Shown: positions 4,931 to 45,483, counted from the stretch's first letter. The stretch: DNA of 64,000 nt from Nemertoderma westbladi (GCA_032718475.1 JAUCBJ010005881.1:9860-73859), one strand, 5' to 3'. Made by a program: numbers and translations. Notes: generated from the sequence alone by a model not told the origin.

Positions 4931-5059
4931 TATAGAATTATATTCTCTAAATGCCGTGGATTTTCAAAATTTTTATTTTATTCGAATTAACTTTGCTAAA
5001 GATTACATTAAGTCCTCATTTGTATTTGCTATATCTATTTGTACGATGATTAGTCAAGT

Positions 5060-5144
5060 GGTTCAGTAGCTCAGTCGGTAGAGCGTTGGAAATTATATGT
5101 AGTGTGTATTGATTTCGAATCCTAGTAAGTGCGAATTATTTTTT
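5060..5144 (+). promoter_or_regulatory. tRNA-derived Pol III type-2 promoter-like segment in the 5' LTR (B box degenerate in this copy)
   Basis: A box/D-arm TAGCTCAGTCGGTAGAGC at 5067; GATTTCGAATCC at 5111; T6 run at 5139-5144. Confidence 0.7.
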
Positions 5145-5211
5145 GTGCAGAATTTCAACTCATTTAAATTGGCCGCTACAAATTAATTGCATTTACTCGA
5201 AGTAAGGTTAA

Positions 5212-5465
5212 CCAATGAGACTGTAGTTATTAGATTGTAACCAATGTCGTACGAGTTATATATTTGCTGGACCAATAGCTATCTTTAAAAACCTGTTAGA
5301 ACTCATAGAACAATCGAGAATTTTCTCGATTGATTGTGGCACAAATTTGGTATAAAAGGTGCGATTTCGTTCATTAGTTATCTCTCTCTATCTTTCTTTC
5401 TCAGTTACATTATTTCAGATTACATTGTTTATTGTATAATAGTTATCGTTTGATTTTGTAATAAA
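5212..5465 (+). promoter_or_regulatory. Candidate Pol II promoter and poly(A) signal of LTR 1
   Basis: CCAAT at 5212, 5241 and 5272 (about 30-bp spacing), TATAAAA at 5351, AATAAA at 5460. Confidence 0.55.
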
Positions 5466-7638
5466 AGTTAGAAATACTTGTCACATCTGCCCTTTTCTAT
5501 CTGTTTTATCATGCTTCACCACGGTGAACCCAACTGAGGGACAGGATGGCTGGCTAGACATCGGGCCGCAGCAATGAACGGGAACATCAAAGGAATGTAG
5601 ACAGGAATCAGGAATGATATCATCTTAGTTATTCGCCCATCGCCTGAAAGGTTAGACAGCGTTCGATGCCTTGCTACCTAAGTATAAGACCAAAGATCGA
5701 AGGTAGAGGTAGTGACACGCTGTACGCCTAAAATTACATCTAGGGACTGTACTGTCTTAATTCAGGAAAAAACCGCAGTAGACCTTCATATTCCTACGGG
5801 GGGGGAGAGGAGAGAGCTCAGGCAGAGATACTAGTACGCAGATAGGACGTAGGCACACCGGTACAAGGCATACACATTGGTAGGGTGCAGCAAACTGTAC
5901 GCCTAACTCTTGCTAAGTACAGGTGCGTCTGCGACTATTTGTAGTACAATGGTGTCCATTGCATCAGAACTTGTCGGCCAGGAGAGTTGCTGCGTTTCAC
6001 CTGAATTAGGATTGTACTGTTCAGGCGGTAGGGCAGTTTACGACTAGGCGCAAATAAATTGAGGCTAATTAGGGATACTAACATCTACCGTGTCCCCGCC
6101 GACATCCTGATAGGAAGTTACCAAGCCCACCTAGGTAACCAAAATTCTAGATAAGAACGCCAGGCTAGCTATTAGTAACCGTACGCCTACTGTAGTAAAC
6201 TAACACATTTCTTCTTAGTATTAGGGACCTGGTAAATTAAAATTGCCGAATTCTGGGCGTAGTATTAATCTCATGCCAGAATTTGAGTCCTGGAAATACG
6301 CAAGAGGGGAAGGAGCCTTATCATTCGTGAGTATTGGCCCTACAAGTTACAAAATTAGAATATTCGTAAAATGCACACCGTACCCAGTAATTATATATGT
6401 GAAGGAGCAAAACTGATCTTGACTGTTCAGAATTAACACACGCGCGTTAAAAATTATTTACACCTCAAAATATATAAAATTAACTTTTGTCCGTACTGCG
6501 CTTTGCCCGCTAGTTAGACATCTCCAAATCTCTGCACCTAGCTAGCGTCTCTTTCGCCCAACCATATAAATCACACCGCGGCAAAGTATACGAGCCCTTT
6601 AGTCCGTCAGCGAGTCAGCCTGATTTTAGGATTCGCTGCGCGGGATTTTGTTTTATCGAAGTTTGTCTGTTCGTAGACTGTTTTCTGCCTTACCGGTTAT
6701 AAGGGACCAATACTGCAATATATTCGCTTACTTGGAGTTTACTGTTTTGGTGAGAAGGTCGGATTTATGATTTGATTCACAAACTTTACAGTAAGATATT
6801 GCAGGTATTGTTACTGTCTCTTCGAATTAGTAGGAATGTGTTTTACTGAACTACAGTTCGGTAGGACTAAAGTTATTTGAAAATTTTGTATTTTGAGGTA
6901 AAAGTTTATATTTGATTAGCTAAGTGCTAATTTTTTGAAATAAAATTTTGATTTGAACCGCGTGTAAAATTTTTGGAATTGAATACCGGTGTTTAAAAGG
7001 ATTTAAATACCATATTGTACCGGTACAAAATTTTCGTAAAAGTAAAACCTAACTCTTTTGTTTTTCAGGATTCAGAACTCATTTCTAGACTGTAACGAGA
7101 GCAAGACCGTGTTTAGCAAGTTTGGGAGATAGATAACCCAACAACTTTGGTTGGGAAAATCGCACTTCGTCCGCAACGCTGGAAACGGAAAGGTTCACGT
7201 CCGGTTTGTATCTGGGAATCTGTTTTTCTGGAGAATTATTGGAGTGGGTGATTTCGAAAAGTTGCATAAATAAGTTAGGCATTACAGTATTAGTTAAAAT
7301 TTATTGTGGGTTCCACTGTCTCAAGTATTTATGCATTCCGTACGATTTCTTTGTTCATTGCTGAATTAGTCCGTATTATTGTATTTAATTTACCTTTTGA
7401 TAACGCATATCGTTATCCGATTTATTTGTTATAAAATTGGCCGCTAGGCTAATTTTATTATATACTTATTCCGTGACATTTATTTGCTGTAAAATTGGCC
7501 GTTTAGGCTAATTTTATCCATCTGCTATAAAATCGGCCGGTAGGCTAATTTTATATGACTGTAATTAGTACTGTTTAAATATAAATACGGTAAATTTGAT
7601 ACTTTGACACTCACTTTACTTGACTTACAACTACTGAA

Positions 7639-10600
7639 ATGAGTGACAAACAAGACTATACGAAGAATACACCTACCGACTATGACTCATGTGATGCGGA
7701 TAAGTCAGCAGCGGAAGAACTACAAGGGAAGACTCGCGAGCCTACCGAACCTACACCGTGTGCGTCACCAGTACATCCAACGGGAGTACCGGATGCCGTA
7801 GTACGAGGCGACGGCAGGACCGAGGACTTTCTAACTGTTCCGCAACCTAGATATAGGGAAACGGACATGGTAAGTTCAGTAGGAAGCCAGGAGAGCGTGG
7901 TTAGAAGCGTCGGCGGATACATGGCGCATATTACCAGGAGTATTGGAGAAGGCCAACGCATATTAGACGAGTTGACCGCTCCGATGTCTCGGTTTGAGTT
8001 CTACACCCTCCAGGTTAGAGTACAAAGTAGAGTACATAAGTCCGTAGATAACCTTATCAGTCTACAAGATCTAGCTAGACAGAGACAGGATATGGATACT
8101 CAACTTAGAATCCTCGAGAAACTAATGATCGCTAGAGAGAAACTGATTCAGTTTAAGTCGACAATTAGGCAGATACAACAGGAACAAGCGGACCAGTTGT
8201 TAGGTGAGTCAGTTTCGGACGAATTATTGCAACCCGAGGAAGAACAGGAACTGTATAGGCTGGATGGACAATTGAAACACCTGACGGATCACTTACGCAT
8301 GTGCGGCGAGGACGTCGGAGATTGGGAAACCGTGCCGGAGGCTACGAGGGAAACTTCACTCGCACAAATCGAACCGGCACCGGGAACACTAGATCAATCA
8401 CTGGTGAGTATTCGCAGCGAAATTGGCGAGGTGAGTATGGCTACGTCAGAAATTGCTCGACAACAGCAGATCTACAGACAACAACAGGAGTGGGAGGAAC
8501 AAACTCAATTGCTAATGGCACAAGCAGCAGCAGAAGAAGAGAAACTACGCGTTGCGAATGTTGCGAGAATCTCTCATCTGCAAGAACAAGCTGAGTTGGA
8601 AGCAGCCGAAATGGAAAGGTTAGAGTTGGACATTGCACAACAAGCGGCAGCGGCCGAGTTAGCGCAACGAACGGCAGCGGCCGAGTTAGAGCGACAAGCG
8701 GCAGCGGCAGCGGCAGTGGCAGCGTCCGAGTTAGAGCGACAAGGGTTAGCTTCAGAAGTGAGAACCGAAATGAAAAAACGGCAAGTAAAGGCTCAGTCAG
8801 CTATACGACAAGCGGAGTTCGAGGCGCAACAACAACAAACGGAACAACGCGAGAAAGAAGTTAAACTTCGTTTCGAACTTGAGAAGAAGGCGAGAGAATT
8901 AGCCAACGCCAAGGAAGATTTGGATCTACAAGCCCGCGACCGATCGATGAGATCTCGAGACGGACATGATTTAGACCAGATGGAGGTAAGGCACCGCCAA
9001 ATCCAGGAACGAATGAAGGAAGGTTCGATAGGAGCACCTGGACGGGAACGACAATTGGTTAAAGACTTATGTCAAAGATTCCCTCAAGTAACTCCTATGT
9101 TTGCACCAGTTACGACTAAGGAACCTGTTTTGATTGCTGGTAGTAGTAATATTTCTCCTATCCATGGTGCGACAGAACACAGGTTTGTTATTCCGGACAA
9201 GTTTACACCGCCAAGAGCAACGTCATCGCCTATTCCGAAAGTCAAGGTAAGTAACCCACCGATTACAGATCGTAGTAGTTTGTTGACCGCACCTGCACTA
9301 CTGACGACTAAACAGGTGAGTCCACCTTCGACACCAAAACCCGCCAGAACATACACGTACCCAATGACTTTTAGGCCTACAAGGCCTTTAGATTCAAACG
9401 CTGTCATTCGACCACCGAACCAGTTTACATCGCAATCTACGACTTCGAGGAAGACTTGTGAGCCTACCGAACAACGGAGACCAGTGGATACGCTACCGTT
9501 CAACCAGTTTACATCGCAATCTACGACTTCGAGGAAGACTTGTGAGCCTACCGAACAACGGAGAACAGTGGACGATGTTCCGAAACGGAATGTTAGAATT
9601 CGAACGACACAACGGACGCGAGCACGTCAGCCACCGTATCCAGGTGACAGTAGTACTTCGAGTGAATCGGATTACCCGAAACGCGAGGTATTTAGAACAG
9701 GAGCGGCTGACGAATATAAACGTGAGCGTTCAGATAACTCCTTTATCGATAATCCTCCACAAAATACACCAACACAAAAGGCGTTACAACCAACGGACGC
9801 AATTAGTACGCAACAACTCGCCGAAATAATGCGCCCAGTTGTAGACAAGTTGGCTCAGATAGAGAAACGTTTAGAAGAAACTCAAACTGATAGTTCGCGA
9901 GGTAACGAGTTCGAACACTCTAGACACCCGAAGCAGCAAAGAAAACAACCCTCGAGAAACACTTCGTATCAAGGAAAAGCGCCAAGACGAGAGAACATCA
10001 ACTCGATTGTCAACCAAGGACGCGAAACTTTGAACGTGGCCGAGGAGATAGCGAAATTCGCCGCCAGACAAGGTTTACCGGTACAACAACCACCGAAGTT
10101 TTCAGGTAACTCGAAACATTGGCACACCTTTGTGGACTACATCGAAACACAAATAGCAGCGTGCGCCTTTACATCGAGGGAGAAATTCAACTACCTGCTA
10201 CAAACGCTGACGGGAGAACCGAAACGTCTAGCGGAGACCTTTGTCGGTGTACCAGATGCCTTCGAACTAGCGTATGATCGCTTAACTTCAATTTACGGTG
10301 GCACGGTGAGTATGGCTAAGTCAGTGATAGATGAACTCTGTAAAGGGGGGGCTATAACAAAACCCGTTGACTTACTAAAATTAGCTGACGAGATTAAGAA
10401 CGCCATTACTACACTACGCTCGATTGGACAACTTGACTACGCGAACACTCCGACAGTTCTATTGAAAATAATAGGAAGATTACACCATCGACTTCGTCGG
10501 GAGTGGCGAAAGATAGAATATCAGCGAGAAGAGAGAGGCGGATTCTTGAAGTTGGAAGACGTCTACTTACTGATATCCAGAGAGGCAGTCGTTGAGACGC

Positions 10601-13600
10601 GTTCGAACTACACGGACCAACATATCGTGGCGGAGGGAATAACATTACCATCCTCGAACCGACAAAAACCCCAAACAACATCCACCAAGACGGTTACTTA
10701 CGCCACATCGACCGACACCCGACAATTTTCGGACAATAATAAGGTATCCGCACCAATTGGAACCAAACAGATCCGACAGCAACTGACCACAGATTTTAGC
10801 GGTTGCCAATATTGTGAACGGCTAGGTAAACGACATACTAGCCATAAACTGAGAGGTTGTCGACTATTCTGCGAATTGAACTCGGAGGAACGACGATTAC
10901 AAATACGACCATTGGACTCTTGTTGGCGGTGTACGCTACATGGACATGTCTGTAAGGACTGCCCAAATACAGACACCTGTCCTTCTTGTGGACGCAACCA
11001 CGACGGCTTGCTACATACAGACAGTCATACGCCGACCAAACGCTTCACCAGGGAACACCCGGAAGCTGCAGCAAGATGCAACACAGCATATAAGGGTCGA
11101 GAGTCGAAAACAACACCGACATTCGTGACGCACATTAGAGATTGTTTCTCGGAACAATCAGGATCGTCAGATGAAGAGTCGGAAGACGAAGACGTTTACT
11201 TTGATACTGGAGACGAACAACCATCGATTGCGCTTCTGACGCCTGATCAACTAAAGGGGTTTAGTATAATACCTGTCAAGATTACTGGCATCAAAGGGAG
11301 CAAGAGGATCTACGCTATCCTGGATTCAGCCTCATCTCATAGCTACGTGGATGAGAAAGTAGCTGATGTTGTGACGGATCTCCGACAAGGTAAGAACGTC
11401 AGTTACACCGTAAGTAGTATGCATGGACAACGTGCAATACCAGTGACACGAGTTAAGTTGAACTTAGACACTCTTCTTCCGAAATCGCAACATAGCGAAA
11501 AGGAGAGGTCTTTGTTACCCTTTAAGGATTTAACCTTTGCGGCCACAAAGGACTTTAGTAACCTACTAGGTCCTGTCCCAGAACAATCCTTGGAGGACCA
11601 TAAGTACTTCAGACACCTTGGTGTACCTGAATGTCCTGTCAACTATAGGTCGGTAGCAATGCTGATCGGGACAGATCAATTCAACCTACATCAAGTGTGG
11701 GAAACCAGACCATCGGCAGTCGTAGCGGGAAACGCATACGCCTGTAGAACGCCGATAGGGTGGTATACTCGAGCGCCTGTGCGCACACTGGATATAAGTG
11801 ACGAGGAAGACGATATACAAAGTACATGTAGTTTATTAACTACAACTTCGACTCATTCCTTTTCACACGACGTAGACTATACTACACTACATTCGACAAA
11901 ACATGACACGACGTGTGTAGCGAGTATGATAAGTCACAAGGAGCAGCTAATCCACCAGGTGAGTTTAGAACTTGGGAAGAAGACGAGTCAGCCAGAGATT
12001 CCATCGACGACAGATGATAACGCCGGAAGACTTGCGAGCCTTTCTACACCAGACATATCGCCAGACACGTTACCAGACGTATCACCAGACGCGTTACTAG
12101 ACGGTCAACCAGACATTTTGCCAGACATATCACAAAATGTTCTACCAGACACTAGTAACATATTGACAAATAGTAAAGCCGCAGTTTCTCTATTGGAGCG
12201 GCCTTCTACAGACAATCAACCAGACACGTTACCAGACGTATCGCCAGACGCGTTACTAGACGGTCAACCAGACGTTTTGCCAGACACGTCACTAGATATT
12301 TCGCCGGATGTTCCGCGAAACATTTTACCAGACATGTCACAAAATGTTCTACCAGACACTAGTAACATATTGACAAATAGTAAAGCCGCAGTTTCTCTAT
12401 TGGAGCGGCCTTCTATTGACAAACAACCAGACGCGTTACTAGACGGTCAACCAGACGTTTTGCCAGACATGTCACTAGATATTTCGCCGGATGTTCCGCG
12501 AAACATTTTACCAGACATGTCACAAAATGTTCTACCAGACACTAGTAACATATTGACAAATAGTAAAGCCGCAGTTTCTCTATTGGAGCGGCCTTGTATT
12601 GACAAACTACCAAATTTGACACACTTGAGCAACAATAAGCACAGTGAAACCTCATGTATTACAGATGTGGGTAGTACCTACGTAAATGTAAATACAGGTG
12701 TTACTTTGCGCTCAAGAGACATACCAAACTTGCAACCTATGGTGAAACCTGGGATTAATATCGGCAGAAAAATAAGTTTACCGAAACCCACTGACCCCAT
12801 AGAGTTCAAACCACCATTAACGATCGACTTACAAAGTACTGACAACCAAGGTAAGAAAACAAGGAAGGACAAATTACTTGTAGACCCGGACGGATCAACA
12901 GTCAACAAGGGAATACTTACCGGCGGACCCGTGGGCCCTTCTAGTAAATCAAAACCTTCCAAATTCTCCATTGACTTACCTGATGACGTCACAAATACTT
13001 ACGTCGACCGCATTGTAAACCTAACAGATTCTTGGACAAACGCTTGCCGAAAATTAGCGTGGATTGTACGTTTTGTACAATACGTTAAAGGCAAACGCGA
13101 CTTTACACGTCGACTTACATTGACTGAGATTGACAGGTGTGAAATTAAATTAATTCGCCATTACCAACTGCGATATTTCGCACGCGAATTCACATCTATA
13201 AATCAAGGTCAACCAATCAAGTCGTCACCAATATTGAGTTGGAGTCCGATAATTTATAATGGCTTAATTTGTCATAAATCTCGGCTTCAAAACATTGACT
13301 TTAACACAAACTTTAGATACCCAATAATAATATCGCAGCATCACGAACTACAACGTTCAATGATACTGGACGCACATTTACATCTGAAACACGCTGGAAG
13401 ACACCACTGTCTTTCCTACTTACATACAAGATTTGTATTAATTAGACCCAGTAAAGCGTTAAGTTCAGTGACACGTACGTGTATTATTTGTAAAAAGGTA
13501 CATTCTAGAATAGGTACCCAAGAAATGAGTGAACTTCCACAAGCACGACTTCAAGCATTCAGACCACCTTTTACAGAGACTGGAATTGACTGCTTTGGTC

Positions 13601-14511
13601 CCATACATACGAAACGTGGACGTATACTAGTAAAACGCTGGGGACTGATTTTCACATGTATGTCCAGTAGGGCAGTTCATATTGAACGTGTGATGGATCT
13701 TTCCACCAACGCGTTTATACTAGCATTGCGGCGATTTATCGCTAGACGCGGACTAGTGAAATGCTTGTACTCAGACCAAGGGACAAACTTTGTTGGTGCT
13801 CGAAATGAGATTGCTAGAGCCTTTAAGAAATTAGATCATGATCAAATCTCAAACGAACTACGTCCTTACAAGATTGTTTGGAAGTTTAATCCTCCAGATA
13901 GTCCATGGAGAGGCGGAGTCTGGGAGAGATTGATTAGATCTATAAAGACAGCCATGGCAAAGGTCATTCCAGTAAACCACATTTTGACAGACGACCAACT
14001 GACAACACTGTTTGTTGAAATCGAGGCAATACTAAATACTAGACCAATAGTATTAGTACCCGATGACAAACAATCCCAGTTTGCTTTAACACCGGCACAC
14101 CTGCTTATGCAGGCACCGACTACTTTAACGCCTATTTCTTTTCCAACAGAAGGCGATAGCTACGGTAGAAAAGCGTGGAAAATCAGGCAACTACTAGCTA
14201 ACAAATTCTGGGAAATATGGCAAAACCATTATTTGCCCTCTATTTCTGCCAGAACAACATGGTACAATAACACCCGCGCATTAAAGCCGGGAGATCACGT
14301 GCTGTTAGCGGAAGTGAATCTAAAAAGACGCTTCTGGATAACAGGTGTAATTTTAGCCACACATCCATCTATGGATGGAGTGACAAGAACTGTGACAGTA
14401 CGGACAATTGACGGTCGTACAGTTGACAGACCGACTCAACGTCTCGTACTTCTTGAAGAGACTCGTAACGAGTCTGGAGACTACAAATCTCCAACTAATG
14501 TTAGTAAATAA
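7639..14511 (+). CDS. BEL/Pao polyprotein Gag-protease-integrase lacking RT and RNase H (2290 aa)
   Basis: Gag PPKFSG...W..F; knuckles CQYC..H..C, CWRCTLHGHVCKDC, CPSCGRNHDGLLH; protease AILDSASSHSYV; IN HLHLKH...CIIC, TGIDCFGP, YSDQGTNF, GGVWERLIRSIK; no YxDD or DAS motif. Confidence 0.93.
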   Translation: MSDKQDYTKNTPTDYDSCDADKSAAEELQGKTREPTEPTPCASPVHPTGVPDAVVRGDGRTEDFLTVPQPRYRETDMVSSVGSQESVVRSVGGYMAHITRSIGEGQRILDELTAPMSRFEFYTLQVRVQSRVHKSVDNLISLQDLARQRQDMDTQLRILEKLMIAREKLIQFKSTIRQIQQEQADQLLGESVSDELLQPEEEQELYRLDGQLKHLTDHLRMCGEDVGDWETVPEATRETSLAQIEPAPGTLDQSLVSIRSEIGEVSMATSEIARQQQIYRQQQEWEEQTQLLMAQAAAEEEKLRVANVARISHLQEQAELEAAEMERLELDIAQQAAAAELAQRTAAAELERQAAAAAAVAASELERQGLASEVRTEMKKRQVKAQSAIRQAEFEAQQQQTEQREKEVKLRFELEKKARELANAKEDLDLQARDRSMRSRDGHDLDQMEVRHRQIQERMKEGSIGAPGRERQLVKDLCQRFPQVTPMFAPVTTKEPVLIAGSSNISPIHGATEHRFVIPDKFTPPRATSSPIPKVKVSNPPITDRSSLLTAPALLTTKQVSPPSTPKPARTYTYPMTFRPTRPLDSNAVIRPPNQFTSQSTTSRKTCEPTEQRRPVDTLPFNQFTSQSTTSRKTCEPTEQRRTVDDVPKRNVRIRTTQRTRARQPPYPGDSSTSSESDYPKREVFRTGAADEYKRERSDNSFIDNPPQNTPTQKALQPTDAISTQQLAEIMRPVVDKLAQIEKRLEETQTDSSRGNEFEHSRHPKQQRKQPSRNTSYQGKAPRRENINSIVNQGRETLNVAEEIAKFAARQGLPVQQPPKFSGNSKHWHTFVDYIETQIAACAFTSREKFNYLLQTLTGEPKRLAETFVGVPDAFELAYDRLTSIYGGTVSMAKSVIDELCKGGAITKPVDLLKLADEIKNAITTLRSIGQLDYANTPTVLLKIIGRLHHRLRREWRKIEYQREERGGFLKLEDVYLLISREAVVETRSNYTDQHIVAEGITLPSSNRQKPQTTSTKTVTYATSTDTRQFSDNNKVSAPIGTKQIRQQLTTDFSGCQYCERLGKRHTSHKLRGCRLFCELNSEERRLQIRPLDSCWRCTLHGHVCKDCPNTDTCPSCGRNHDGLLHTDSHTPTKRFTREHPEAAARCNTAYKGRESKTTPTFVTHIRDCFSEQSGSSDEESEDEDVYFDTGDEQPSIALLTPDQLKGFSIIPVKITGIKGSKRIYAILDSASSHSYVDEKVADVVTDLRQGKNVSYTVSSMHGQRAIPVTRVKLNLDTLLPKSQHSEKERSLLPFKDLTFAATKDFSNLLGPVPEQSLEDHKYFRHLGVPECPVNYRSVAMLIGTDQFNLHQVWETRPSAVVAGNAYACRTPIGWYTRAPVRTLDISDEEDDIQSTCSLLTTTSTHSFSHDVDYTTLHSTKHDTTCVASMISHKEQLIHQVSLELGKKTSQPEIPSTTDDNAGRLASLSTPDISPDTLPDVSPDALLDGQPDILPDISQNVLPDTSNILTNSKAAVSLLERPSTDNQPDTLPDVSPDALLDGQPDVLPDTSLDISPDVPRNILPDMSQNVLPDTSNILTNSKAAVSLLERPSIDKQPDALLDGQPDVLPDMSLDISPDVPRNILPDMSQNVLPDTSNILTNSKAAVSLLERPCIDKLPNLTHLSNNKHSETSCITDVGSTYVNVNTGVTLRSRDIPNLQPMVKPGINIGRKISLPKPTDPIEFKPPLTIDLQSTDNQGKKTRKDKLLVDPDGSTVNKGILTGGPVGPSSKSKPSKFSIDLPDDVTNTYVDRIVNLTDSWTNACRKLAWIVRFVQYVKGKRDFTRRLTLTEIDRCEIKLIRHYQLRYFAREFTSINQGQPIKSSPILSWSPIIYNGLICHKSRLQNIDFNTNFRYPIIISQHHELQRSMILDAHLHLKHAGRHHCLSYLHTRFVLIRPSKALSSVTRTCIICKKVHSRIGTQEMSELPQARLQAFRPPFTETGIDCFGPIHTKRGRILVKRWGLIFTCMSSRAVHIERVMDLSTNAFILALRRFIARRGLVKCLYSDQGTNFVGARNEIARAFKKLDHDQISNELRPYKIVWKFNPPDSPWRGGVWERLIRSIKTAMAKVIPVNHILTDDQLTTLFVEIEAILNTRPIVLVPDDKQSQFALTPAHLLMQAPTTLTPISFPTEGDSYGRKAWKIRQLLANKFWEIWQNHYLPSISARTTWYNNTRALKPGDHVLLAEVNLKRRFWITGVILATHPSMDGVTRTVTVRTIDGRTVDRPTQRLVLLEETRNESGDYKSPTNVSK

Positions 14512-17502: not shown

Positions 17503-17512
17503 CATGGAGCGG
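17503..17512 (+). other. Polypurine-tract-like site of element 1 (CATGGAGCGG)
   Basis: Immediately precedes the 3' LTR; resembles CTGGGTGCGG at the same position in element 2. Confidence 0.65.
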
Positions 17513-19410: not shown

Positions 19411-19428
19411 GAGATAGATAACTAAACG
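19411..19428. repeat. 18-bp remnant of the 34-bp satellite between the two retrotransposons
   Basis: GAGATAGATAACTAAACG matches monomer variants seen near 4451 and 4824 and contains both inner TSD copies. Confidence 0.9.
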
Positions 19429-25700: not shown

Positions 25701-28700
25701 TACCATGGCTGATCTCATGTCATTCTTAGATGGAGAAGTGAAATTACAGCTTCTAAAACAGTCCAGAGAGAAGACACCGGAAAACAAGGTAAGTGAGAAA
25801 CCCGTTTCTAGGAGAAAGGTAACACCAGTGTGTTATACAGACGACTGCGAAAGCCAAACTTCTCAAGGAGAGGATAGCGGGAAAGACACTGAAAGATCTT
25901 ATTATGTCAATAAAATGCCTAAAGAACAGGTAAGTAAATTCAAGTCTCGAACCAATGACAGGAGAGAACAGGTAAGAAAAACTCCTCCTACGTCTCCTAA
26001 GAGAATTCAGGTGAGAAAGCCGAAGAAAGAACGAGTGTGCACAATGTTATTCAAAATAAGGTAAGTAACATCAAACCGAAATGTGCGCTATGTGACGGGA
26101 CCCACCGTTTGAATATGTGTGATGAATTCCTGAAGAAATCATTAACGGAGAGACGGGAAGTCATGTGGGATAAGCGGTTGTGTTATAATTGCCTCAGACA
26201 AGGACACCAACGGCGAACCTGTTACTCCGACACAAGGTGTGCAAAGTGCGGTGCGAAACATCATATCTTGTTGCACACTGAATTTGAGCGAAACAGCCAG
26301 AGTCAGGTAAGTGATTCCGAACTACATGTCCAATTCAGTGATGTGAACGACACTGACCAAAGTTCTGAGATGGAAGGATTCTATACAGATGAATTCTCCG
26401 ACGAAGGTGAATCCTGTTACATGATAAATACCGCAGTGTATCGAGCACTTACGTATGAAAAAGACACAGACAGCGACCTCACCCTAACTACTTCTGATCG
26501 ACGACCATCTTGGAAAGCGCCACCTTACAATGTAGGAATCCGAGAATTTCCTGTAGTACAGGTAAGGGTCCACGGACCTAAAAGGAGTTATGTAGTGAAC
26601 GCCCTCCTTGACTCCGGTAGTACAGGAACATTCATAGAAAAAGAACTAGCTGAAGACATCTTTGCTGGACAACCCAAGTTCAGAACTAAGCTAAACATGT
26701 CAGGAATTATGCAGGTTTGGAAATCTACAGTAATAGCGGATTATTATGTAGGTGCGTTGTCCACCCCCCAGGATGAACTAGGAGAACATAGTATAAGGTC
26801 CGTAAAAATGGTGGCGATAAAGAACTTCGCTACCACCCAAGTGGAACCTTATAACTGGGATGAGGACGATTTCACCCAGCAGCTGGAAATACCTAGATTC
26901 AACACCGATTACCCTGGAGTGCAAATACTCATCGGTCAAAACGCGCATGAAGCGCTCGAGACATTGGAGAAACGGCCCGCTCAACCGCAACCACTACAAG
27001 CTTATGCGGGAAGAACTAGAGTGGGTTGGTACTTTACTGGCCCTTCCCGTAGAACTCTCATGGAAAGATTACCGAAAGACCAGGTATATCAAGTAAGAGA
27101 ATGGGAAGTCGAGGGCAGTGAGTTAGACGATCCAACTGAGGGAACACCATACTCCTCAGATAATGACGATGTCCACCAACTTTTCGATGAGGAGAATACC
27201 ATCGATCTCCTTGAGGAAAACGAGACTTGGCAAAACCAAGGGAACTTATGTCAGCTCCTTCTTCCATCAGAACGAGACGACTATAACGACGAGCTTAATG
27301 ACGTCATTGAACGTTGTAATGCCAAGACTCGGGATGAACACGCCGTACGATTCTTTACTCAAGAGGCTGTAGAGCCCAATTCCTACGACAAGGCCCTATC
27401 GGTAGAGGAAGAAAGAGCCAAGCAGATCCAAGAGACAACTACACGTTTTCTTAAAGATCAAGGTAGATATGAGATCGGTCTACCTTTCCGAAAGCGAGAA
27501 CCAAAGTTCGTAAACAACAGACCCTTGGCGGAGAAAAGAATTGCTCAACTACATCGACGCCTTACGGCAAATTCTTCAGCTAAAGAAATGTATCAAACGC
27601 AGTTGGAGAAATTTATTAGTAAGGGATATGTGGAGCTAGTACCGGAAGAAACACTTATAACTGAGAGAACGTATTATTTAACTCACCATTACGTTCCCAA
27701 ACCCGGTAAACCCCATGAGGTACGAGTGGTGTTTGACGGCTCCGCCCTCTATATGGGCCAATCCCTTAATTCTGAATTGTTACCCGGACTCAACTTACTC
27801 CAATCCTTGTTGGGAATACTCTTAAGATTAAGACAATATTCAATCGCTTTCGCCTCAGATATAGAAGGCATGTTCTTACAAGTCAAGGCGCTGGATAGGG
27901 ATCGAGATAGCCTACGATTTCTGTGGTGGCCTGAAGGAGACCTCAACCAGAAACCGGTGGAGTACTGGATGACCATCCAGGCTTTTGGGATAATCTCAAG
28001 CCCTTCAAACGCCTGTTCAGTGGTGCGTACCACTGCGGATGACAACCGAGATGCCTTCTCTAAAGAGGTGATTGACAACATCAAGCGGGATATATACATG
28101 GATGACAATCTAAAGTCCCTTCCATCAGTCGAAGAAGCCATTGATGTCGCTAAAGGAACGGTAGAGTGCTTAAAAATAGGTGGATTTCGATTAACTAAAT
28201 TCACCAGCAACTCCCGTGAGTTTCTGGAGTCGATCCCGGTAGAAGATCGAGGAGCGAAAGACCTGGATCTAATAAAAGATGATCTCCCAGAAACTAAGAC
28301 CCTTGGTTTGAAATGGGACACAGAAAGAGATATCCTGTTTTTCCAACTAAAACAGCGAGATAATCCAGTTCGGACTAAACGTATTTGTTTAAGTATCCTG
28401 AGCACTTATTTCGATCCATTGGGATTTATTAGCCCAGTTATATTGATTGCTCGGAGTTTAGTACAACAAATGTGGCTTGAAAACCACTCATGGGACGATC
28501 CACTTAAGGGAGAATTGTTAAAGAAGTGGATGAAATGGGAAGATTCTCTACCAGCCATCGAGAACTTTATAATTTCCCGTTCATATTTTGGTCATGTTCT
28601 CCCTACGTATTCCTATCAACTCCATGTGTTTGGAGACGCCAGCAATATCGGAATAGGTATAGTAGCCTACCTAAGGGTGGAAACTCCGGACGGAATCAAA

Positions 28701-30998
28701 GTTGCCTTGGTTACCTCTAAGGCATTAATAAACAATAAGTTGAAAGTTCCTCGAGCGGATTTAAAAGCGGCTCTATACGCTACAGCCATCGGCCGGAATG
28801 TAACAGAACAGATCGACTATCCACTGGAGAAAACTGTCTATTGGACCGACGCTTTGCTCGTGTTGGAGTATATAACCAATGAAGTCTGTCAGTTCAGCGT
28901 CTTCGTTACCAACAGAGTAGCCATTATACTCAGTCGCACAACGATGGATCAATGGAGACATTGCCCCGGAACGATTAATCCAGCAGACATCGCTTCCAGG
29001 GGAGCAACTCCACAAGAACTGGTTGATACTCCAGACTGGCTAGGTGGACCCGACTTCCTCTACAAAGAAGAAGAAGAATGGCCTCCTCATCTTACTACCA
29101 CAGAGATTAGACAAGCCAAGGGAGTGGAGAAAGTCAAACCTAAAACTCAGGCGAGTAAATCGAAGTTATTCAAACCTATGGTAGATCTGTCTGTACTACA
29201 TACTTCCGGAGACGACGCCTTGGATCAGAAACCCACAGCCACAAATAAACTTGTTGTGGAAATCCGTGAGAAGGATTGGACATCTGGAATACCAGACGCC
29301 TCGCAAGGACTCTCACCTCTCCTGCAGAGAGCGATACATCACTACAGTTCCTGGAATCGGCTCTGTAAGGCCGTTACATATTTAAAAAGATGTTTTCACC
29401 ATCACTACTCCGGGATGAAGACCAAAAGTGATACCGCTCCAATAACATCGGTGCAGGTCCATGTTATTAAAGATCTTCCCAAATATAAGATATCCGACAG
29501 GTTTCTGAAGGAGAAGATCAGTTATCAGGAGCATGAAGAAACCAACAAGCAGATGCTGAGACTCCTGCAATGCTATGAGGATTCCGATAAGTATTTCCTG
29601 TTGTTGAGAAATCCGCAGATGCACTTAAGGGATCGTTTCTCTAGCACAATGATAGATGGGTTGATACGTGTTGGAGGAAGATTAACGAATGCTCCATTAT
29701 CCTTTGACACTAAGTTTCCCATACTCATTAGAAATCTTGAAATACAAGTCAAGATGATTGTAGACGTTCACAGCAAACTTTATCATGCTGGTAGGGAATG
29801 AGTTCTTAGCGAAATTCGAACTTGCTATTATTTTTATAAACCCCGTAGAGCTCTGAACCAAGTTCTTAGGAACTGCATACCCTGTAGGAAAGCATTCAGT
29901 AGGCCTTTAACACAGCGAGAGGCAGAATTACCTAGGGAACGAGTAAGCTTCTATGAACCACCCTTTACTAATACCGGTGTGGATTTATTTGGCCCTATTG
30001 AAGTATATCGTGCTAGGACTATAGTCAAGAGATGGTGTGTCATCTTTGTTTGTATGACTTGTAGAGCTATCCATCTCGACAGGGTGAACGATTTATCTAC
30101 CAACAGCTTTCTATTAAGCTTACGACGACAGATCGCTCGCTTTGGCACTAGTAACACGATGAGATCTGATAAGGGAACAAACTTCATTGGTGCCAACAAT
30201 GAAATCAAAGCTTACGTCAAAGATTGGAACCAAAGACAGGTGGACGATCAGCTACGAGTAACAGCGTCTAGCTGGACCTTCAACGCCGCCGACGCCCCTT
30301 GGTGGGGAGGAAGTTGGGAGAGATTAATAAGAAGTGTGAAAACCGCATTTCACTTTATAGTGCCGTGCCGCGCGTATCTCACCGACGAACTTTTGCGGAC
30401 GTTAATGGAGGAAATCGCCGCCTATCTCAACGAGAGACCGCTTATGCCAGTCTCATCGAGTCCCGATTCCCTGGAAGCGCTAACACCCGCGCATTTCCTA
30501 CTGAAGAAACCTGTAGCCATGCTCCCACAATCGGAAATCACAGACGGAGACGAATACTGCCGGCAAACTTGGCAACTCATGCAGTTGTTATCCCGTCGTT
30601 TCGCTGACCATTTCGAAAAACATTATCTGCCCACGCTACAACTTCGAACTAAGTGGTTTGCGCAGCAAGAAAACGTCAGCGCTGGAGACATGGTTCTTAT
30701 TGTGGATGTAGATCTTCCACGTAAGCGGTGGCAGACAGGTCGTATCATCGAGACTCACATCTCGGATGACGGTTTGGTGCGATCGGTAGAACTCGTCGTC
30801 ATGCGACGTAACTTCAAGAAACCGGGAATTGTCTTCGAGACACAGCAGCTCAATCGCCCAGTTGGTCGCTTATGTTTACTGGAAAGGGACAGAGAACTCT
30901 CCGGAAACTATGGGAGGCAAGATACTCTTCCCACGACCACCTCCCTAATCCAACAAACATCTAGGGACTATAAATTTTATTATAATCGTTTTCTTTAA
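22792..30998 (+). pseudogene. BEL/Pao gag-pol (Gag, PR, RT, RNase H, IN) disrupted by four stops and one frameshift
   Basis: Knuckles CYNCLRQGHQRRTC; PR ALLDSGSTGTFI; RT ASDIEGMFLQV and YMDD; RH LHVFGDAS, YWTD, NPADIASRG; IN TGVDLFGP, SDKGTNF, GGSWERLIRSVK; stops at 23032, 23218, 25354, 29799; frameshift near 26040. Confidence 0.93.
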
Positions 30999-32551
30999 TT
31001 TTACTTAGTAGAACGTTATTTTAGCGATTATTTAGTAGATTAGTGCAATATATATTCGGGTTTATTACTTAATTACTTATATATTATATATTTAGTGCGA
31101 CGGCGAGAAATAATTATTTTTCTCTTTCCTTACTGTCCGTATTACATTACAAATACGTAATTACAGTAAGATGAAATGTCCGTACTTATTAAAGTACAAT
31201 AAAGCTCCTACTATATTCAAGTATTATTGGTAAAGTAGAGTATTAGGAATGCAAAATTCAGATCCTCGTGTCTCGGCTAAACCAAGCTCTGGGTAGACCT
31301 TGGAAACGACTTGCCTCTTCTCACTGACATTGCTTCGTGCGATATTGCTCTCATACCGTATAGTAAATAATACATATAGTAGCGTGATGTCCTTTTAACA
31401 GTAGCGTATAACGCAAAATAAATCTGTTAAACCCTTTGACCATCTGTAATTCTAGTCGATTAAGATATCGCGGCACCCACCGATATACTTGAAAGACAAA
31501 TTCTAGAATCAGTGGTTAACGTCCCCAGACAAGTTCTGGAATAAACTGGTGCCCATCCTAAATATTAATTATTAATATTTATAAAATCTGTCGAAATTGT
31601 AGATCCTTTAAAATTCTAGTCGATTAAGATATCGTAGCACTTACCGATACTCTTAAAAGGTCAAAATTCCTAGAATCAAGGATCCCAGTCCCCAGACACG
31701 TTCTGGAATAAAATTGTGTCTATTTAACATTAAATAATAAAATTTACGGGAATAAATTTAAATTCATATATTTCAATGAATTTAATAAATTGTCATTTTA
31801 TACAATTTATAACATTCCCAAAATTCCATTAATTAATAGATCATGGGAGCGGAGATTCACTCTATTAAGTGTATTTGTGTGCGAGAATCTCCAATATATA
31901 GTCAATAGCCGATAAAATTCATAAAATCATATATAGAGAGGATATTGACAATTAAAGAATTACTATTAAATAGCATCCCAGATCTGTATGCATGAGAATT
32001 ACCCTAATTCTACCGCTAGCTTTCCATAATGTCACCATGGCAACAACCACGCTAGAATTAGAAGTGAGTTAAAAGAACAATAAAGGCTTGCCCCATTGAA
32101 TAGCATAAGGAATAAAATAGCACATTGCTAGTATCCCAGGATACCCAATAATAACGTGGCATTCTGGAAGGCACTGACTAAAGGACAAATGGCCCGAATA
32201 TGTGCGGTTTGTGACAGTTGTGTGGAATTTGTGCGTTTATAGGTGAATGTTACTACTAAAGTGTGTTTACAGTAGCGAGTCGCAATTGTGAAAGTAGCCC
32301 TAACTCTCCAGTAAGAACCTGAAGTATATCTAAGCCTTTGGGACGGACGGTGGAGTGACTCGTGCTGGTTGTTGTGGTCGTTGTGCAGCTACGACGTTGG
32401 CGATAGGCACATCGGCGAAAGTACACCAGCGCTGAAGATCTTACACTGTCCGGGGGCAAAAGAGGGGTAGGCAGCGACGCCCGCTAGCCTAATATATAAA
32501 CTCATTATAATATTGATAAACTCATAGCAGATATGACTGAGTTGATAGAAG

Positions 32552-35500
32552 ATGATCTTGGTATCAGGGAGCGATACTCTACCTTTACAAGCGTTTGTCG
32601 ATAGCTTGATACGCGGCGACGCTGGTCCAACTACTACGGAGGATGATGGTCATTATATCGAACCACCAATGTCCCCGGAGCAACTTACGCGTGAATTGGA
32701 TTATAGAAAGTTCACCGCTCGCTATACGCATCGTAATGGTACGTATATGGACTTCTTAACTACTGGCCATCCTATCGATTTACACGATACGGACGACGTA
32801 GACACCGAAAGGGAAATGGTTTTATTTAAATATCATACCCAGCGGAGTCGGAACGATAAACCGAGAATAGAACACGAGAACTCTATTCGAAACAGACTCG
32901 AAAGGGAAGACGTTGAAGAGCCGGATAAACGCAGCGACTTCAACGATTATCTGGAATTCCTGAGAGAGACATACCTCAATATTGCCAGTCAACAAAATCT
33001 CGAAACTCGATATCCTCAAGGTATACATCATGACCCTATGATAGAACTCAAACGACTCTCTTTCACTATGATGTATCTCACCGCCGATCGACCGCTACCT
33101 GTCGTCCCAGATAGCTTCGAACAGATGGAGGAATATTGTAAAACTGGAGAACGATCACCCGCGTTTCCCCTGCAGGACGTGCGTCTTTGGTATTACTGCG
33201 ACGAGTGCCCTAGACCCAATCAGCAAACGGAAAGACATAAACATCCGCGGAGACGTTGCGCTAAACACAGTTTTACACGATATACTTATGGGAGTTTCGA
33301 GCGAAACCTGTTCGACGTATCCCCTACGGTTGCTCGACTCAAACGATCCTTGAACAAACCAATGATCAGAGTTCCGGAATACTCGGTCAGACCTCCTCAT
33401 TCCTCAGTTAGACCTCAGACTCTTGATCCTAATAGTATCACGGATCCTCCCGAACTGTATTCGCTGTTCAAAGATCTAGTGTTACCCGAACAGTTGATCG
33501 GTGGCACTCCGGTAGTAGGCTCACTAGATATTCGCCAACCCTACCTAACTGGATTGGGACGCGGTCATCTAATATCGCCGTTTAACCCACACAACCGTCC
33601 CGGCTTCACCTCGATACAACCCGTTACGGAAGTCGAAGAGAGCGTCGTACGAAATGCGTTAGACGCTATTCGGCAGAAAATTGGAAAGGGAACTTACGAT
33701 TGTTTGGAGAAACGTAAATTGCAACAACAAGTCCAAGCGGTGAAGGAATTAGCTTTACCCCAGTTCGAAAGAGAAATACAAAATCTCGAGGAGGACATCG
33801 AATGTGGACGAACCCACTCTTTACAAGAGTTCCTAGATGAGCGTCTACAACAACAAGCGGATGAAAATCAGCTCGAGGAGAGACATATAGAAATGGATGA
33901 GAGAGAAGAAGCAGCTTTAGCTCAACCCGAAGCTCAAATCCTTATGACGGATCTCTACTCTAAAACCATCCTTCATCCCTCGATGGTTCCCAATTTTGGA
34001 GACAAACTCTTTGCGACGGTACAACCCCAACCGGTTGATATCAACCTAAGATCTCGAGATCTTATCGCTGACGCTCCCATGTTGCAACGTCCGCCCATCG
34101 AAGCCGCTCGTGTCGATGGTATACTCGTTGAACCTCCGGACAATAGAGTGGATCTTGTCCGTCGCATGGTACACGATGTAAACATACGCGCTAGACCTTT
34201 ACCGGACTCGTTTTATGGGATCAAAGATCACCCTTATTACGTCAACCTAACACAATATTACATGGTAAAACCGGAAGATCCTACACATAGTCTGAGGTTT
34301 CTGCCTCTCATAAATCCTCTCGATCTTGTCGAACTCGAACAACTGCATAAACATCTGGATCAGTTAGTTAAGATAAACTCATTTCGAAAACCATACAATG
34401 TTTCCAGAATAGAGAAAGAAACAATACCTCCGTATAATCTTGATGGATTCATCAAAACTCGTTTAGTACACTGGAATCTTGACGTGTTATTCGAGGAAGA
34501 AAGAATACAACGATATGGAGATGTGGAAACATATACCACACAATATTTAAAGTATAGAGACCTACCTAATGCTAGCGAATGCGCTACCTTGTGGCATCCT
34601 GTGGGAATGACCCTCGAAAACGCCACTAAAGAGTGGAATGAGACTCTTAACGTTATCGAGATGTATGGAGTTGTCACCTACGACAACGAAGGTAGCGTTC
34701 CGGTTGGAGAACTGGGAACTACGCGGATGATACACATATGAGGACTCGCTGGTTCTGCCCACGTATTTACTCGAGCGTGTTCCGATGTGATTGATTATTC
34801 TTTTGAAACTCTTACTGAGACACAAAGAGACTCCGACATGGACAATTCGAGCTCGCGCAGCGTTACGTCGCCGACACCAAGCGCAAACCGGCCATGGGTA
34901 TCGATGGATCGATGTTACCCCAGCCCGTGCTCGAGATGTTGTTTAACGAAAGAATCCTTAAAATCGGCTCAGCTGTTTATGGAGATCTACAAAACGACTT
35001 TCGGAATATGGAGAACATTCCATACCCTTTCGTGGATACTCAGCTGATTGCTCCCTGGGCAGAAGGCCGAGGTTTCTTCTGCACTATGTATGCCAATACA
35101 CCCAGCGGCATTACTAAAGTACAACGAACCTCCATCGGACATCTTGCCTTTCAAGAATACGGATGGAATTTCAAGGTTGGAAATCCTAAAAATTACCAAC
35201 AAGTATATGGAGATCATTATTCTCGTTTATACTTTGATGGACCATTGACCGCACCTGGCGCCGTGTATAGCTTTATGAGTGTTCCACTTCGTCCCTCCTT
35301 AGCTATATACACGATCTTTGAAAACGCAGCACTTGCCGGTTGGCTAGCCGATGTGTGCAGTCGTACCATACGCGCCCATCCCTTAATACTTGGAACCAAA
35401 CTCGCCAAGTTAGATGAACACAATAAATTCATCCGCTTCGAATGTTTCAGGCGCTTTCTGACTCCGTTCCATAACGTTGATAGTCAGTTCAAGGACCGCG

Positions 35501-36537
35501 CTCTGACCAAACTCAGCCTAAGAGACTCAGCTGCGGAGAAGCTAAACAGCGCGGGATTTGCCCTCTTTCAGGACGTTTGTATACAGAACTTACATTCATC
35601 TGTTATACAAAGACCCCGAATACCCACGGGTTATTCTGTCGTGGAAGTTCAGACAGTGGGTCCGCTTGCGGAGACAGCCGCACCTACCTCAGCTATGCAA
35701 TTGGAAGACGAACCAATCTGCTTAGAGTCTGAAGCGATCCAGCCTACAGCGCCCCGGAGCAGCGATAACGATTACGTCTTGGAGTGGTATCAAGGTCCAC
35801 AATGTCTCACCGCATACGATTATCGACACGCCAACTATGTTTCTCGAAAACGTTGCCGATTATGCGCATCGAGAGACCATTTCACCCCTATGGACTCAGA
35901 CGTACCCTGCTCCTATTTCCACGAACAACCGATGATGGAGATCTATTGTGCGTATTGCAGACTTAATAACTCGCATATTTTTGCAGTCTGCCCCCAATTT
36001 ATGACCCAATGCCACCACTGTCAACTTAAAGGACATGCCAGTTATAATTGCCCCTTTAACCGCGATTTAGAAAGCGTAGATGAGATGATTACCCTGCGCT
36101 ACATCCGAGCTTGGGAAGCGAACGCGGATTTACATTGTGAGTCACGCCATCGCTACTACCCTGGACGCTCTTACGAGGGAGTTTACGCATTCCATCCTTA
36201 TTTATTCGCGTCTGTGGAACAAAAAACACGCACACCGAGTTACGAACTAATGAAGCGTGTTGGTGAGTGTATTTCAACCAAATTTGTTCGAAAATATCTT
36301 AGGAACGTCAATCCTAACGATATTACTTCATATCATTTGATCAATTTCATCCGTCAAGACCCTGAGTATGGCGATTTATTTATCAACTCGCACCCTGAGT
36401 TACAGGAAGTATCTCGACGGCCCTACGAATATCGAGCCCGAGAACGCGAGCTGGAAAGAACCATTAAACCAAGAAGTTTCTCACCACTCACGGTCCGCCT
36501 ACCGCCATTGTCCAGACGACCCGTCAAGGACCCGTAG
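32552..36537 (+). pseudogene. Accessory ORF of element 2: unknown N-terminal region, DEDDy 3'-5' exonuclease-like domain, triple zinc knuckle (stop at 34739, frameshift ~34820)
   Basis: VVTYDNEG (ExoI-like), LPQPVLEMLFNERILKIGSAVYGDL (ExoII-like), FVDTQ, PLRPSLAIYTIFE (ExoIII-like); CAYCRLNNSHIFAVC, CHHCQLKGHASYNC. Confidence 0.7.
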
Positions 36538-36860
36538 GAGCTGCTGTCCTAAGACACGCCCTAAAGGCTGTTAGACCTCGCTCCACTGAAATTGATATCG
36601 ATCAACCAGGTACCTCGACCGGCGGATACAGCGATCGTAATCCTAAACCTTCTGATGCAATTGTATTGCACCCTTCACCCAGGAGCTACAGCCCTCCTAG
36701 TAAAGTGGCTCGCCCCAAAGAGAAAAGGACTCTTGCTAACCTCAAAAAACTGCGTAAACGCCGTCCGCGTAAGAAAGACTAACTGTTTAGAGTATTTTTA
36801 TATTTTAGAAACTGTGATTGGTTATATTTTATAGACTTAAATCCCATTTTCTGGGTGCGG

Positions 36861-38040
36861 TGTAAAGGCTTTTGCGGAATTAGCCGGTTATTTTCCTGGT
36901 AAAGTACTCTGTAGTTGGTTTAACAGGCATAAAAGGCCGTGTCCTTACTGTACTGGTGTTTTAGAGGACATAAAAGTCATTTCTTCTTTATGTGTACTTT
37001 AGCGGACATAATTCGCAATTTTATGACGCAATGCGCCAAATTCTCTGTAAACAGTGTAGCTACCATGACGACGGCTAACAGCTGATGCTGTACACGTGGA
37101 GCCTTTTCTTTGTTCTCTGTTCCTTCTTTGTTCGGTCAACCAATCAGAGCGTTTTTGCCTCTGTGTTAGAGATTGTATATAGAAACTCGTGGAGTTGAGT
37201 CAGTATGTGATTTTGTCCACAGCCTACAACACCGGCTTTGGAACCTCCGTGTTTCAGTCTTTAGCCCAACATTAGTAGGCTTAATTATAGAACGTATATC
37301 TGTTATCAATCCAAACTCAATAATCATAACTTACTCACTCACTCATAACTTAACAAACCATTCATAACTTAACATTTTACTGCTTTTACTGTCGGTTATT
37401 CATTATATTTGTTGATGGAATATTATATTTGGAATACTGATAAATAATCAGACACCCCAATCTTCTTGATATACTAAAGGTTAGTGAGACCGGTTACATA
37501 TAACGATTGCGACTTACATTAAGTGGTTTGAAGTGAATCTAATGCTATTTTATAGGCCCTACATGTATTGTCTGTTGTTCTCCTTATATGTGACTAAAAT
37601 TAATGAAGGTCGGCAGATCAGTGTGTAGCATTGTGCAGTATTGTGTATGATTGTGATTGATAACAAAGCATCTCCTAAAGAATGCGCCATATACGTGAAT
37701 CTATAGCCATCCCGTTGTGTCTAGTTTAAGTCATAACTCTGTTTATATATTTAAAGCGCCACGTCCTAAAGGAACTGTTAATATTTCCCGAAAGTGAATA
37801 ATATTTGTCAGAGATTATATATATTACGATCAGTCGAATAATACAGTAGGCCTACCCCGCAATACGGTTAGGCTTCCGAATCCAGTCTCCCGGGTATATC
37901 CAGCGGGTGAATGATCGCGCATAGACTGGCTTCGGCTAATGTAGTGTATCAAATACTTGTCATAGGCTAAAGACGATCTATCATCTAAAAGACATCCCAA
38001 TTTGGCAGGTTAAACTGCTAAAGGTCTGAAAGCGCGAACA
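36861..38040 (+). repeat. 3' LTR of element 2
   Basis: Direct repeat of 19429-20608, preceded by PPT-like CTGGGTGCGG. Confidence 0.96.

Positions 38041-45445: not shown

Positions 45446-45483
<38 letters not shown>

Follow-up and report, generated by a model that had tools for sequence, protein, structure and literature searches.

Retrotransposons of the BEL/Pao group, which carry long terminal repeats (LTRs), are recognized by a set of motifs given in the available part of PMC554778: a triple Cys-His array in Gag; LLDxG and LIG in the protease; YxDD in the reverse transcriptase (RT); DAS in RNase H; and DD(49)E in the integrase. The group medians amount to 7.4 kb for the element and 383 bp for the LTR (PMC3118150, supplement 9), and the Repbase element list of the same paper, accessible in part, may bear on whether BEL entries lacking domains are already catalogued. 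For pairs of autonomous and non-autonomous elements, five partner criteria have been formulated: subfamily structure, same activity time, primer binding site (PBS), LTR termini, and promoter (PMC9744471). A further point of reference is self-priming: in Tf1/Tj1 the PBS adjoining the LTR can pair with a stretch of the RNA or LTR of the same element (PMC4600332), and self-priming is predicted for Tcn1 and TAR in plants (PMC6317226), as far as the accessible text of both papers goes. Here we describe two neighbouring BEL/Pao elements, E1 and E2, in a stretch of 64,000 nucleotides from Nemertoderma westbladi (GCA_032718475.1, JAUCBJ010005881.1:9860-73859), hereafter called the window, in whose coordinates all positions are given. 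E1 keeps Gag, protease, and integrase, lacks RT and RNase H, and on balance seems to borrow RT from an RT-bearing member of the lineage that it shares with E2, E2's family being a candidate source.

A self-comparison of positions 3500-38600, which found two long direct repeats, and the junctions delimit E1 at 4931-19410 (14.5 kb) and E2 at 19429-38040 (18.6 kb); both lie on the plus strand, as do all their features given below. E1 is bounded by a 5' LTR of 1899 nt (4931-6829, with a TATA-like motif at 5351 and AATAAA at 5460 and 6053) and a 3' LTR of 1898 nt (17513-19410), the latter preceded by the polypurine tract (PPT) GGAGCGG at 17506-17512. Its ends, TATAGA...GAATTA, are non-canonical, TA...TA being present in both LTRs (4931-4936 and 19405-19410) together with a clean 5-bp target site duplication (TSD). 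Between the LTRs lies an uninterrupted open reading frame (ORF) of 2290 codons, ORF1 (7639-14511), encoding Gag, protease, a spacer, integrase, and DUF5641. Gag includes DUF1759 (aa 821-958) and the triple Cys-His array (aa 1056-1126), whose first box is longer than the published spacing; the protease has ILDSA at aa 1227, a variant of LLDxG, and LIG at aa 1342; and the integrase presents its DD(49)E as D1984, D2046, and E2096, followed by DUF5641. Pfam recognized DUF1759, DUF5641, and, weakly, Integrase_H2C2 in ORF1, and found neither Peptidase_A17 nor RVT there. Where E2 has 771 codons with RT and RNase H, E1 has a low-complexity spacer of 420 codons made of tandem repeats (11767-13026). The motifs YxDD, DAS, and NPAD are absent from E1, and an RT-RNase H profile, for which every other one of 225 such regions of relatives was used, found nothing above -1.8 bits in the six frames of E1 (best iE 0.56) vs 611 bits in E2; a tblastn search of E1 for an RT/RNase H trace was likewise negative. 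The PPT motif GGAGCGG occurs in each of the spacer repeats (12195, 12402, and 12585). The TSD and the near-identical LTRs establish that this copy of E1 was reverse transcribed and integrated; with RT and RNase H absent, it is a non-autonomous derivative and not an autonomous member of BEL/Pao.

E1 is no isolated copy. Contigs of public runs were matched at 85% identity, and five of the seven listed runs contain the stretch or part of it, none of them entered as RNA and the best one possibly being the window's own sample; X4 and X5, used below, are runs with a small share. On E1 there are 15,860 contigs in run X1 and 6,774 in run X3, many at 90-99% identity, and all 30 bins are covered; in both runs, coverage over the spacer is like that of the adjoining bins. 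The protease end is covered by pieces at 87-90% identity, one of which reaches ca. 100 nt into the spacer, and one further contig bridges the spacer and the integrase side. E2 is matched by 147,091 (X1) and 41,585 (X3) contigs, again with 30 of 30 bins covered, RT included, so that per base its family exceeds E1 by factors of 6.7 (X1) and 4.4 (X3). These data support the view that E1 represents an abundant and diverse multi-copy family without RT, not a single broken copy; rarer or more distant RT-bearing siblings may exist. Summed contig depth was not read as copy number or expression, and contigs are unable to rank the parts of an element; two depth patterns were set aside, namely the lowest sums of run X4 in two bins inside the E2 RT (114 and 77) and a depth at 5740-6400 of E1 above that of the leader.

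All BEL/Pao domains, including DUF1759, DUF5641, and the LIG of the protease, are present in E2, in a copy broken by stops. Its LTRs (19429-20608 and 36861-38040, both 1180 nt) have TG...CA ends, in full TGTAAA...CGAACA. The gag frame (22792-26064) has stops at 23032, 23218, and 25354, and a second frame (26001-30998, with a stop at 29799) encodes the triple Cys-His array, the protease (LLDSG), RT (YMDD), RNase H (DAS and NPAD, within Peptidase_A17), and the integrase (DD(49)E). The two frames meet at a break near 26001-26064, where no slippery heptamer was found. Downstream are two accessory frames, one of 730 codons (32549-34741) without Pfam or Atlas match, and one of 572 codons (34819-36537), followed by the PPT GGTGCGG at 36854-36860.

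Several features support the placement of E1 and E2 in BEL/Pao and, within it, in one divergent lineage. As to BEL/Pao, both have the triple Cys-His Gag, the protease, the DD(49)E integrase with DUF5641, and DUF1759; YxDD and DAS stand between protease and integrase in E2 and not in E1, and a 5-bp TSD goes with TG...CA ends in E2 but with TA...TA ends in E1. As to the common lineage, neither integrase has a closer match than the other (44.7% identity, 330 bits vs at most 299 bits for 205 database integrases over the same span). They also come out as sisters, with a support of 0.985 in FastTree (122 rows) and an SH-aLRT of 97 on a stem of 0.58 in a quick IQ-TREE run of 40 rows, made up of E1, E2, and 38 of the 205 full integrases (six hand-picked, the rest by score, at less than 58% identity). 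The kinship put forward in the initial annotation is thus supported by a tree in which the pair forms a long branch of its own, no reference element of a named clade (Sinbad, Suzu, Tas, BEL, Pao, Dan, or Flow) being among the matches. The E1 integrase region has 1073 protein matches, the best 120 at 31-41% identity, and the E2 RT region 1512, the best 120 at 39-43%; those with names are gene models of fish, echinoderms, cnidarians, molluscs, tunicates, hemichordates, and nematodes, none of them close to E1 or E2 among the matches listed. No relatives of the E1 integrase were found among viral contigs. At the other end of the coding region, the Gag proteins begin alike, with MSDKQ in E1 and MSDTKQ in E2, and over the first 30 residues their score exceeds that of 4986 of 5000 shuffles, leaving 14 that reach it; the common start MSD.KQ described earlier stands as a similarity, although not letter for letter. 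A PPT of the form GG(A/T)GCGG precedes both 3' LTRs, and GGAGCGG recurs after pol in both elements (14625-14631 in E1 and 31846-31852 in E2), as had been noticed; out of 1000 simulations, 16 and 44, respectively, produced such a recurrence by chance, and the GG(A/T)GCGG motif occurs 8 times in 1-38100.

RT loss is not confined to E1. In E2's family, a joint seen in runs X3 and X4 (27170>28947) has an insert of 15 letters; both sides fall on codon borders and the insert holds no stop, which yields a variant that has lost RT and the greater part of RNase H (residues 391-982) and keeps protease and integrase in frame. RT loss, then, arose a second time within this lineage. A mirror case, the in-frame joint 29134>30851 that drops the integrase, was seen in one X4 contig. 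Further afield, nine of the 120 best matches to the E1 integrase lack all or part of RT. Three of them (P0042, P0062, and P0088) are open Gag-protease-integrase frames with clean deletions of 538-552 residues covering RT and RNase H; a fourth, P0096, is a gene model with a gap of 403 residues, perhaps a prediction artefact; and the remainder are partial or chimeric. In the integrase tree they branch elsewhere than E1 and E2. The cluster of P0062 has 27 members; 6 of the 15 listed span the full length, with 3-5 residues of difference, and might stem from a single locus sampled several times. We considered whether the RT-less Gag-protease-integrase architecture is unique to the E1/E2 lineage, and rejected this on account of P0042, P0062, and P0088. 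In the literature searched, PMC8556966 included, which left Repbase and Dfam aside and most subscription papers likewise, there is no report of a BEL/Pao element that lacks RT and keeps integrase.

Both elements are predicted, from their sequences, to prime reverse transcription on themselves. The PBS positions directly after the 5' LTRs (6830-6848 in E1 and 20609-20629 in E2) are complementary to the element's own LTR, as claimed in the initial annotation. In E1 the putative primer at 5776-5797 pairs with 6830 onward through 7 bp, a 4-nt bulge, and 11 bp, one of the 11 being a G-U pair; in E2 the putative primer at 19854-19874 pairs with 20609 onward through 7 bp, one mismatch, and 13 bp. The match in E2 is 13 nt exact (reached by none of 300 simulated LTRs and at none of 306 leader positions), and that in E1 covers 8 nt without any G-U pair, as do 10 of 300 shuffles, or 11 nt with the one G-U pair (2 of 300). 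Duplex energies are -21.8 kcal/mol for E1, reached by 2 of 150 shuffles, and -22.8 for E2, reached by none of 150; only one of 150 internal 22-mers pairs equally well in the LTR of E2. Both duplexes end exactly at the LTR edge, where the 3' end of a primer must lie, and each PBS pairs over just 5 nt with the LTR of the other element, so that the sequences differ and the geometry is alike. The earlier statement that a tRNA PBS is missing holds insofar as no TGG adjoins either LTR, but it rests on that sign, host tRNAs being outside the comparison. Taken together, tRNA-free priming of the Tf1 type is a reasonably probable prediction for E1 and E2. The literature searched, with Repbase and Dfam outside the search, holds no report of a self-priming BEL/Pao element, only gypsy and copia cases.

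Two further contig joints suggest that E1 transcripts are spliced. A likely GT..AG intron at 5651-7068 (joint 5648>7067, one X4 contig, 22 nt on the short side) contains the predicted primer as well as the PBS, and a second, at 7248-15141 (joint 7246>15141, one X4 contig, 29 nt on the short side), would remove ORF1 and lead to an accessory ORF; both joints have polypyrimidine tracts and CTAAC branch-like motifs, and we infer that X4 holds RNA. If 5648>7067 is a splice, the transcript must start upstream of 5648, near the TATA-like motif at 5351; a second start near an initiator-like motif at 5786, with the AATAAA at 6053, is possible. Since the first intron holds both primer and PBS, RNAs spliced there could not be reverse transcribed. 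Splicing would thus likely yield mRNAs devoid of the PBS, one of them for a zinc-knuckle accessory protein. The E1 accessory ORF (15173-16666, interrupted by a stop at 15554) begins at the first in-frame ATG past the likely acceptor and encodes a triple CCHC array and an ExxAD helix. It is homologous over 140 residues (28% identity, E 5e-17) to the second accessory frame of E2, which encodes the same triple CCHC and ExxAD arrangement; the pair of related triple-knuckle ORFs reported at the outset is real. A profile of this domain gave 7 weak matches among 1.84 billion proteins, and 4 of these, all unnamed, keep the ExxAD-R motif; metagenome contigs held no locus for the homologue P0243, and none of 2029 candidates was a longer protein with the domain. 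The nearest solved sequences to the knuckles are those of Lin28 and Gag, the Atlas returned one low match (0.81, a CCHC protein), and the AlphaFold model, with a mean pLDDT of 50, was set aside. We regard the accessory protein as a predicted RNA-binding chaperone or regulator. In E2, contigs of runs X4 and X5 join accessory frame 1 (32898) to the knuckle part of frame 2 (35703), giving a short gene like that of E1; further joints begin at 33888-33902 and take out the following 2.5-2.7 kb.

The two elements sit in a single satellite. A 34-bp satellite of 38 copies (3637-4930) ends in the TSD GAGAT (4926-4930); E1 follows; the 18 nt between the elements (19411-19428) read GAGAT, 8 nt, and AAACG; E2 follows; and the array resumes, starting with AAACG, at 38041-38452. 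These 18 nt correspond to a piece of a single unit of the satellite on either side of the pair. Each element has its own 5-bp TSD, GAGAT for E1 and AAACG for E2, and therefore the two are independent insertions, made separately into one satellite unit; co-mobilisation of E1 and E2 as a single unit was rejected on the same grounds. The E1 LTRs differ by 26 mismatches and 9 gap columns (1.4%) and the E2 LTRs by 11 mismatches (0.9%), a difference that is not significant on one copy each (Fisher p 0.31), and the LTRs of the two elements have no similarity to each other (best blastn E 0.28). The picture given initially, of two elements with unrelated LTRs of about 1% divergence each, in the same orientation and 18 bp apart, is accurate. 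Given that both elements lie inside this array, the chance of such closeness is about 0.02.

How, then, does E1 move? E1 being a multi-copy family without RT, its RT is very probably supplied in trans; the helper probably lies inside the E1/E2 lineage, and its identity with E2's family is a tentative suggestion. E1 RNA would meet the RT-RNase H of the helper in a shared or mixed particle. The PPT is the signal that RNase H reads, and the signals read by RT and RNase H would be those common to both elements, namely the PPT GG(A/T)GCGG and the geometry of the self-priming duplex, in which the LTR segment would anneal to the PBS and then be cut so as to give a 3' end at the edge of the LTR. What integrase reads appears to have diverged, to TA...TA in E1 and TG...CA in E2, which would explain why E1 keeps an integrase of its own.

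A number of observations weigh against this reading. Judged by the partner criteria, the PBS sequences differ, the LTR termini differ (TATAGA...GAATTA vs TGTAAA...CGAACA), and the lack of LTR similarity speaks against a shared promoter; the same activity time is compatible with the LTR divergences, on one copy each only. The Gag proteins are 25-28% identical over stretches of ca. 75 residues and the protease regions 23%, values unfavourable for co-assembly. The end branches of both integrases are long (0.8), and long-branch attraction could partly explain their pairing. At the identity threshold used for the contigs, a more distant RT-bearing sibling of E1 would be invisible. The openness of ORF1 is no proof of selection in this copy, the chance of no stop since insertion being 0.16-0.21. 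As to priming, the E1 duplex is modest: among 110 leader positions, 3 attain 11 nt, and among 150 internal 22-mers, 9 find an equally good partner somewhere in the LTR. The E1 splice evidence amounts to one contig per joint in one run, X4, whose type was guessed as DNA; and if the splice is accepted the E1 primer segment becomes internal instead of being the RNA 5' end as in Tf1, contigs being unable to show starts. Some of these points have an answer. The shared accessory ORF, PPT, and N-terminus are independent signs of a single lineage despite the long branches, and an element that supplies integrase and primer itself, as E1 would, should indeed differ from its helper in PBS, LTR ends, and promoter. 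With the shared PPT, this makes E2's family a reasonable candidate helper, not a demonstrated one. The initial proposal that E1-type copies borrow RT from E2-type helpers is hence upheld as regards one divergent lineage, an RT-less family, and RT in trans, but E2 as the helper is unproven, given the differing LTRs, ends, and PBS, the low Gag identity, and an adjacency due to independent insertions.

The strongest competing explanation, which we hold to be unlikely, is that an unsampled and closer RT-bearing family mobilises E1 in trans, and that E2 is a distant cousin in the same satellite. The unrelated LTRs, the differing ends, Gag proteins only ca. 26% alike, and the separate TSDs all agree with it, as does the finding that dimers of transposable elements commonly arise by double insertion at preferred sites (bioRxiv 10.1101/158386, in the part available). 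Against it, no nearer relative appears among the best 120 of 1073 integrase matches, a weak argument in a database that holds neither family, and E2's family is abundant and has the PPT and duplex geometry in common with E1. It is improbable that the E1 of the window arose by a single or rare deletion from an ordinary autonomous family whose LTR it shares. In-frame RT deletions do occur beside close RT-bearing relatives (P0062 vs P0068, 56-75% identical) and in E2's family, and the absence of joints at the spacer refers to 15 listed of 59, and the single loose end there (9 nt, one contig) to 24 listed of 920; but the RT region of E1 is replaced by the 420-codon spacer without RT remnant and not cleanly deleted, the spacer in X1 and X3 has coverage similar to that of the bins beside it, and contigs at 89-90% identity extend from the protease toward or into the spacer, another one leading from there to the integrase side. 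Least probable of all is an obligate co-packaged pair whose cDNAs integrated together here, for which the 18-nt distance, the common strand, the similar LTR ages (p 0.31), and the chance of ca. 0.02 could be cited, since the TSDs are separate, E2 has a full set of domains and outnumbers E1, a single locus is involved, and insertion preference accounts for dimers without partnership. Borrowing of RT by E1 from an RT-bearing member of its lineage could be extended into a broader and less probable picture: a self-priming lineage with RT as a shared good, whose RT-less families would retain the genes for Gag, protease, and integrase, prime on their own RNA, tolerate drift of the LTR ends (as to TA...TA), and depend on E2-type helpers for RT-RNase H alone. 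Frames that lack RT and keep integrase would then be recurring across BEL/Pao, and overlooked because surveys are keyed on RT.

The rest of the window is heterochromatin-like: at least five different satellites (30, 42, 34, 22, and 29 bp) are interleaved with elements, at 1-588, 1464-2009, 3637-4930, 38557-40595, 48592-49334, and 56590-59030. Inside the 22-bp satellite lies a foldback-like element of ca. 8 kb (40595-48592) without long internal ORF, whose long inverted arms (287 nt at 98%) are built of subrepeats of 150-160 bp. An RTE-type non-LTR reverse transcriptase fragment occupies 50558-52060 (RVT_1 E 5e-29, DUF6451), with a related second fragment at 55803-56144. GC-rich broken frames on the minus strand at 59971-62718 resemble, in their motifs and without Pfam support, a degenerate CRE-type non-LTR element. 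The E1 LTRs carry a stretch resembling tRNA A and B boxes (5058-5130 and 17640-17712), possibly a SINE head or a Pol III promoter borne by U3; Rfam and ARAGORN gave no match, this stretch included.

Compared with known systems, E1 and E2 are like the Sinbad/Suzu type of BEL/Pao (PMC554778 and PMC3118150, in the parts available) in their triple Cys-His Gag, LLDxG and LIG, YxDD, DAS, DD(49)E, and domain order, and their nearest matches are BEL/Pao proteins of fish, echinoderms, cnidarians, and molluscs at ca. 40%. They are unlike Sinbad/Suzu in length, 14.5 and 18.6 kb with LTRs of 1.9 and 1.2 kb (above the medians and within the ranges), in the 3' zinc-knuckle accessory ORF, and in the predicted self-priming, and E1 moreover in its lack of RT and RNase H and its TA...TA ends. 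As in Tf1/Tj1, Tcn1, and TAR, the PBS lies directly after the LTR and is complementary to the element's own LTR segment; those elements, however, belong to Ty3/gypsy or Ty1/copia and use the RNA 5' end as primer, whereas the pairing in E1 and E2 extends 7 bp further and the E1 primer would lie downstream of a 5' exon, if the splice is real. If true, self-priming in BEL/Pao would have originated independently once more, and this might account for further BEL/Pao elements that have no tRNA PBS.

Of the autonomous and non-autonomous pairs, RLG_Wilma with RLG_Sabrina/RLG_WHAM and RLG_Cereba with RLG_Quinta (PMC9744471 and PMC11302176, as far as accessible) resemble our case in that the non-autonomous partner, old and high in copy number, has retained Gag (in Sabrina_SA protease as well) and has little similarity to its helper; unlike E1, that partner lacks RT and integrase, and has PBS and LTR ends in common with the helper. 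BARE1/BARE2 (PMC3735527, in the part available) likewise offer a parasitic subfamily packaged with a helper, and RNAs to be translated that form a pool apart from those to be reverse transcribed, but BARE2, of the copia superfamily, lacks Gag and not RT. P0042, P0062, and P0088 have the same open frame without RT and RNase H as E1 and differ from it in their clean deletions and their position in the tree; they are known from protein frames only. In the literature searched, non-autonomous LTR elements drop RT and integrase together, or Gag, whereas E1 drops RT-RNase H alone. The case thereby allows the signals for RT to be told apart from those for integrase, and an old and abundant family of the E1 type raises the question of how RT, normally part of Gag-Pol, reaches a foreign particle; annotation keyed to RT would miss such families. 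Beyond the initial annotation, the geometry of the LTR-PBS duplex, the likely splicing, and the repeated RT loss are new, and the specific pairing of E1 with E2 has become weaker. All in all, E1 and E2 present a variant of the known autonomous/non-autonomous LTR pairs, set in a divergent BEL/Pao lineage.

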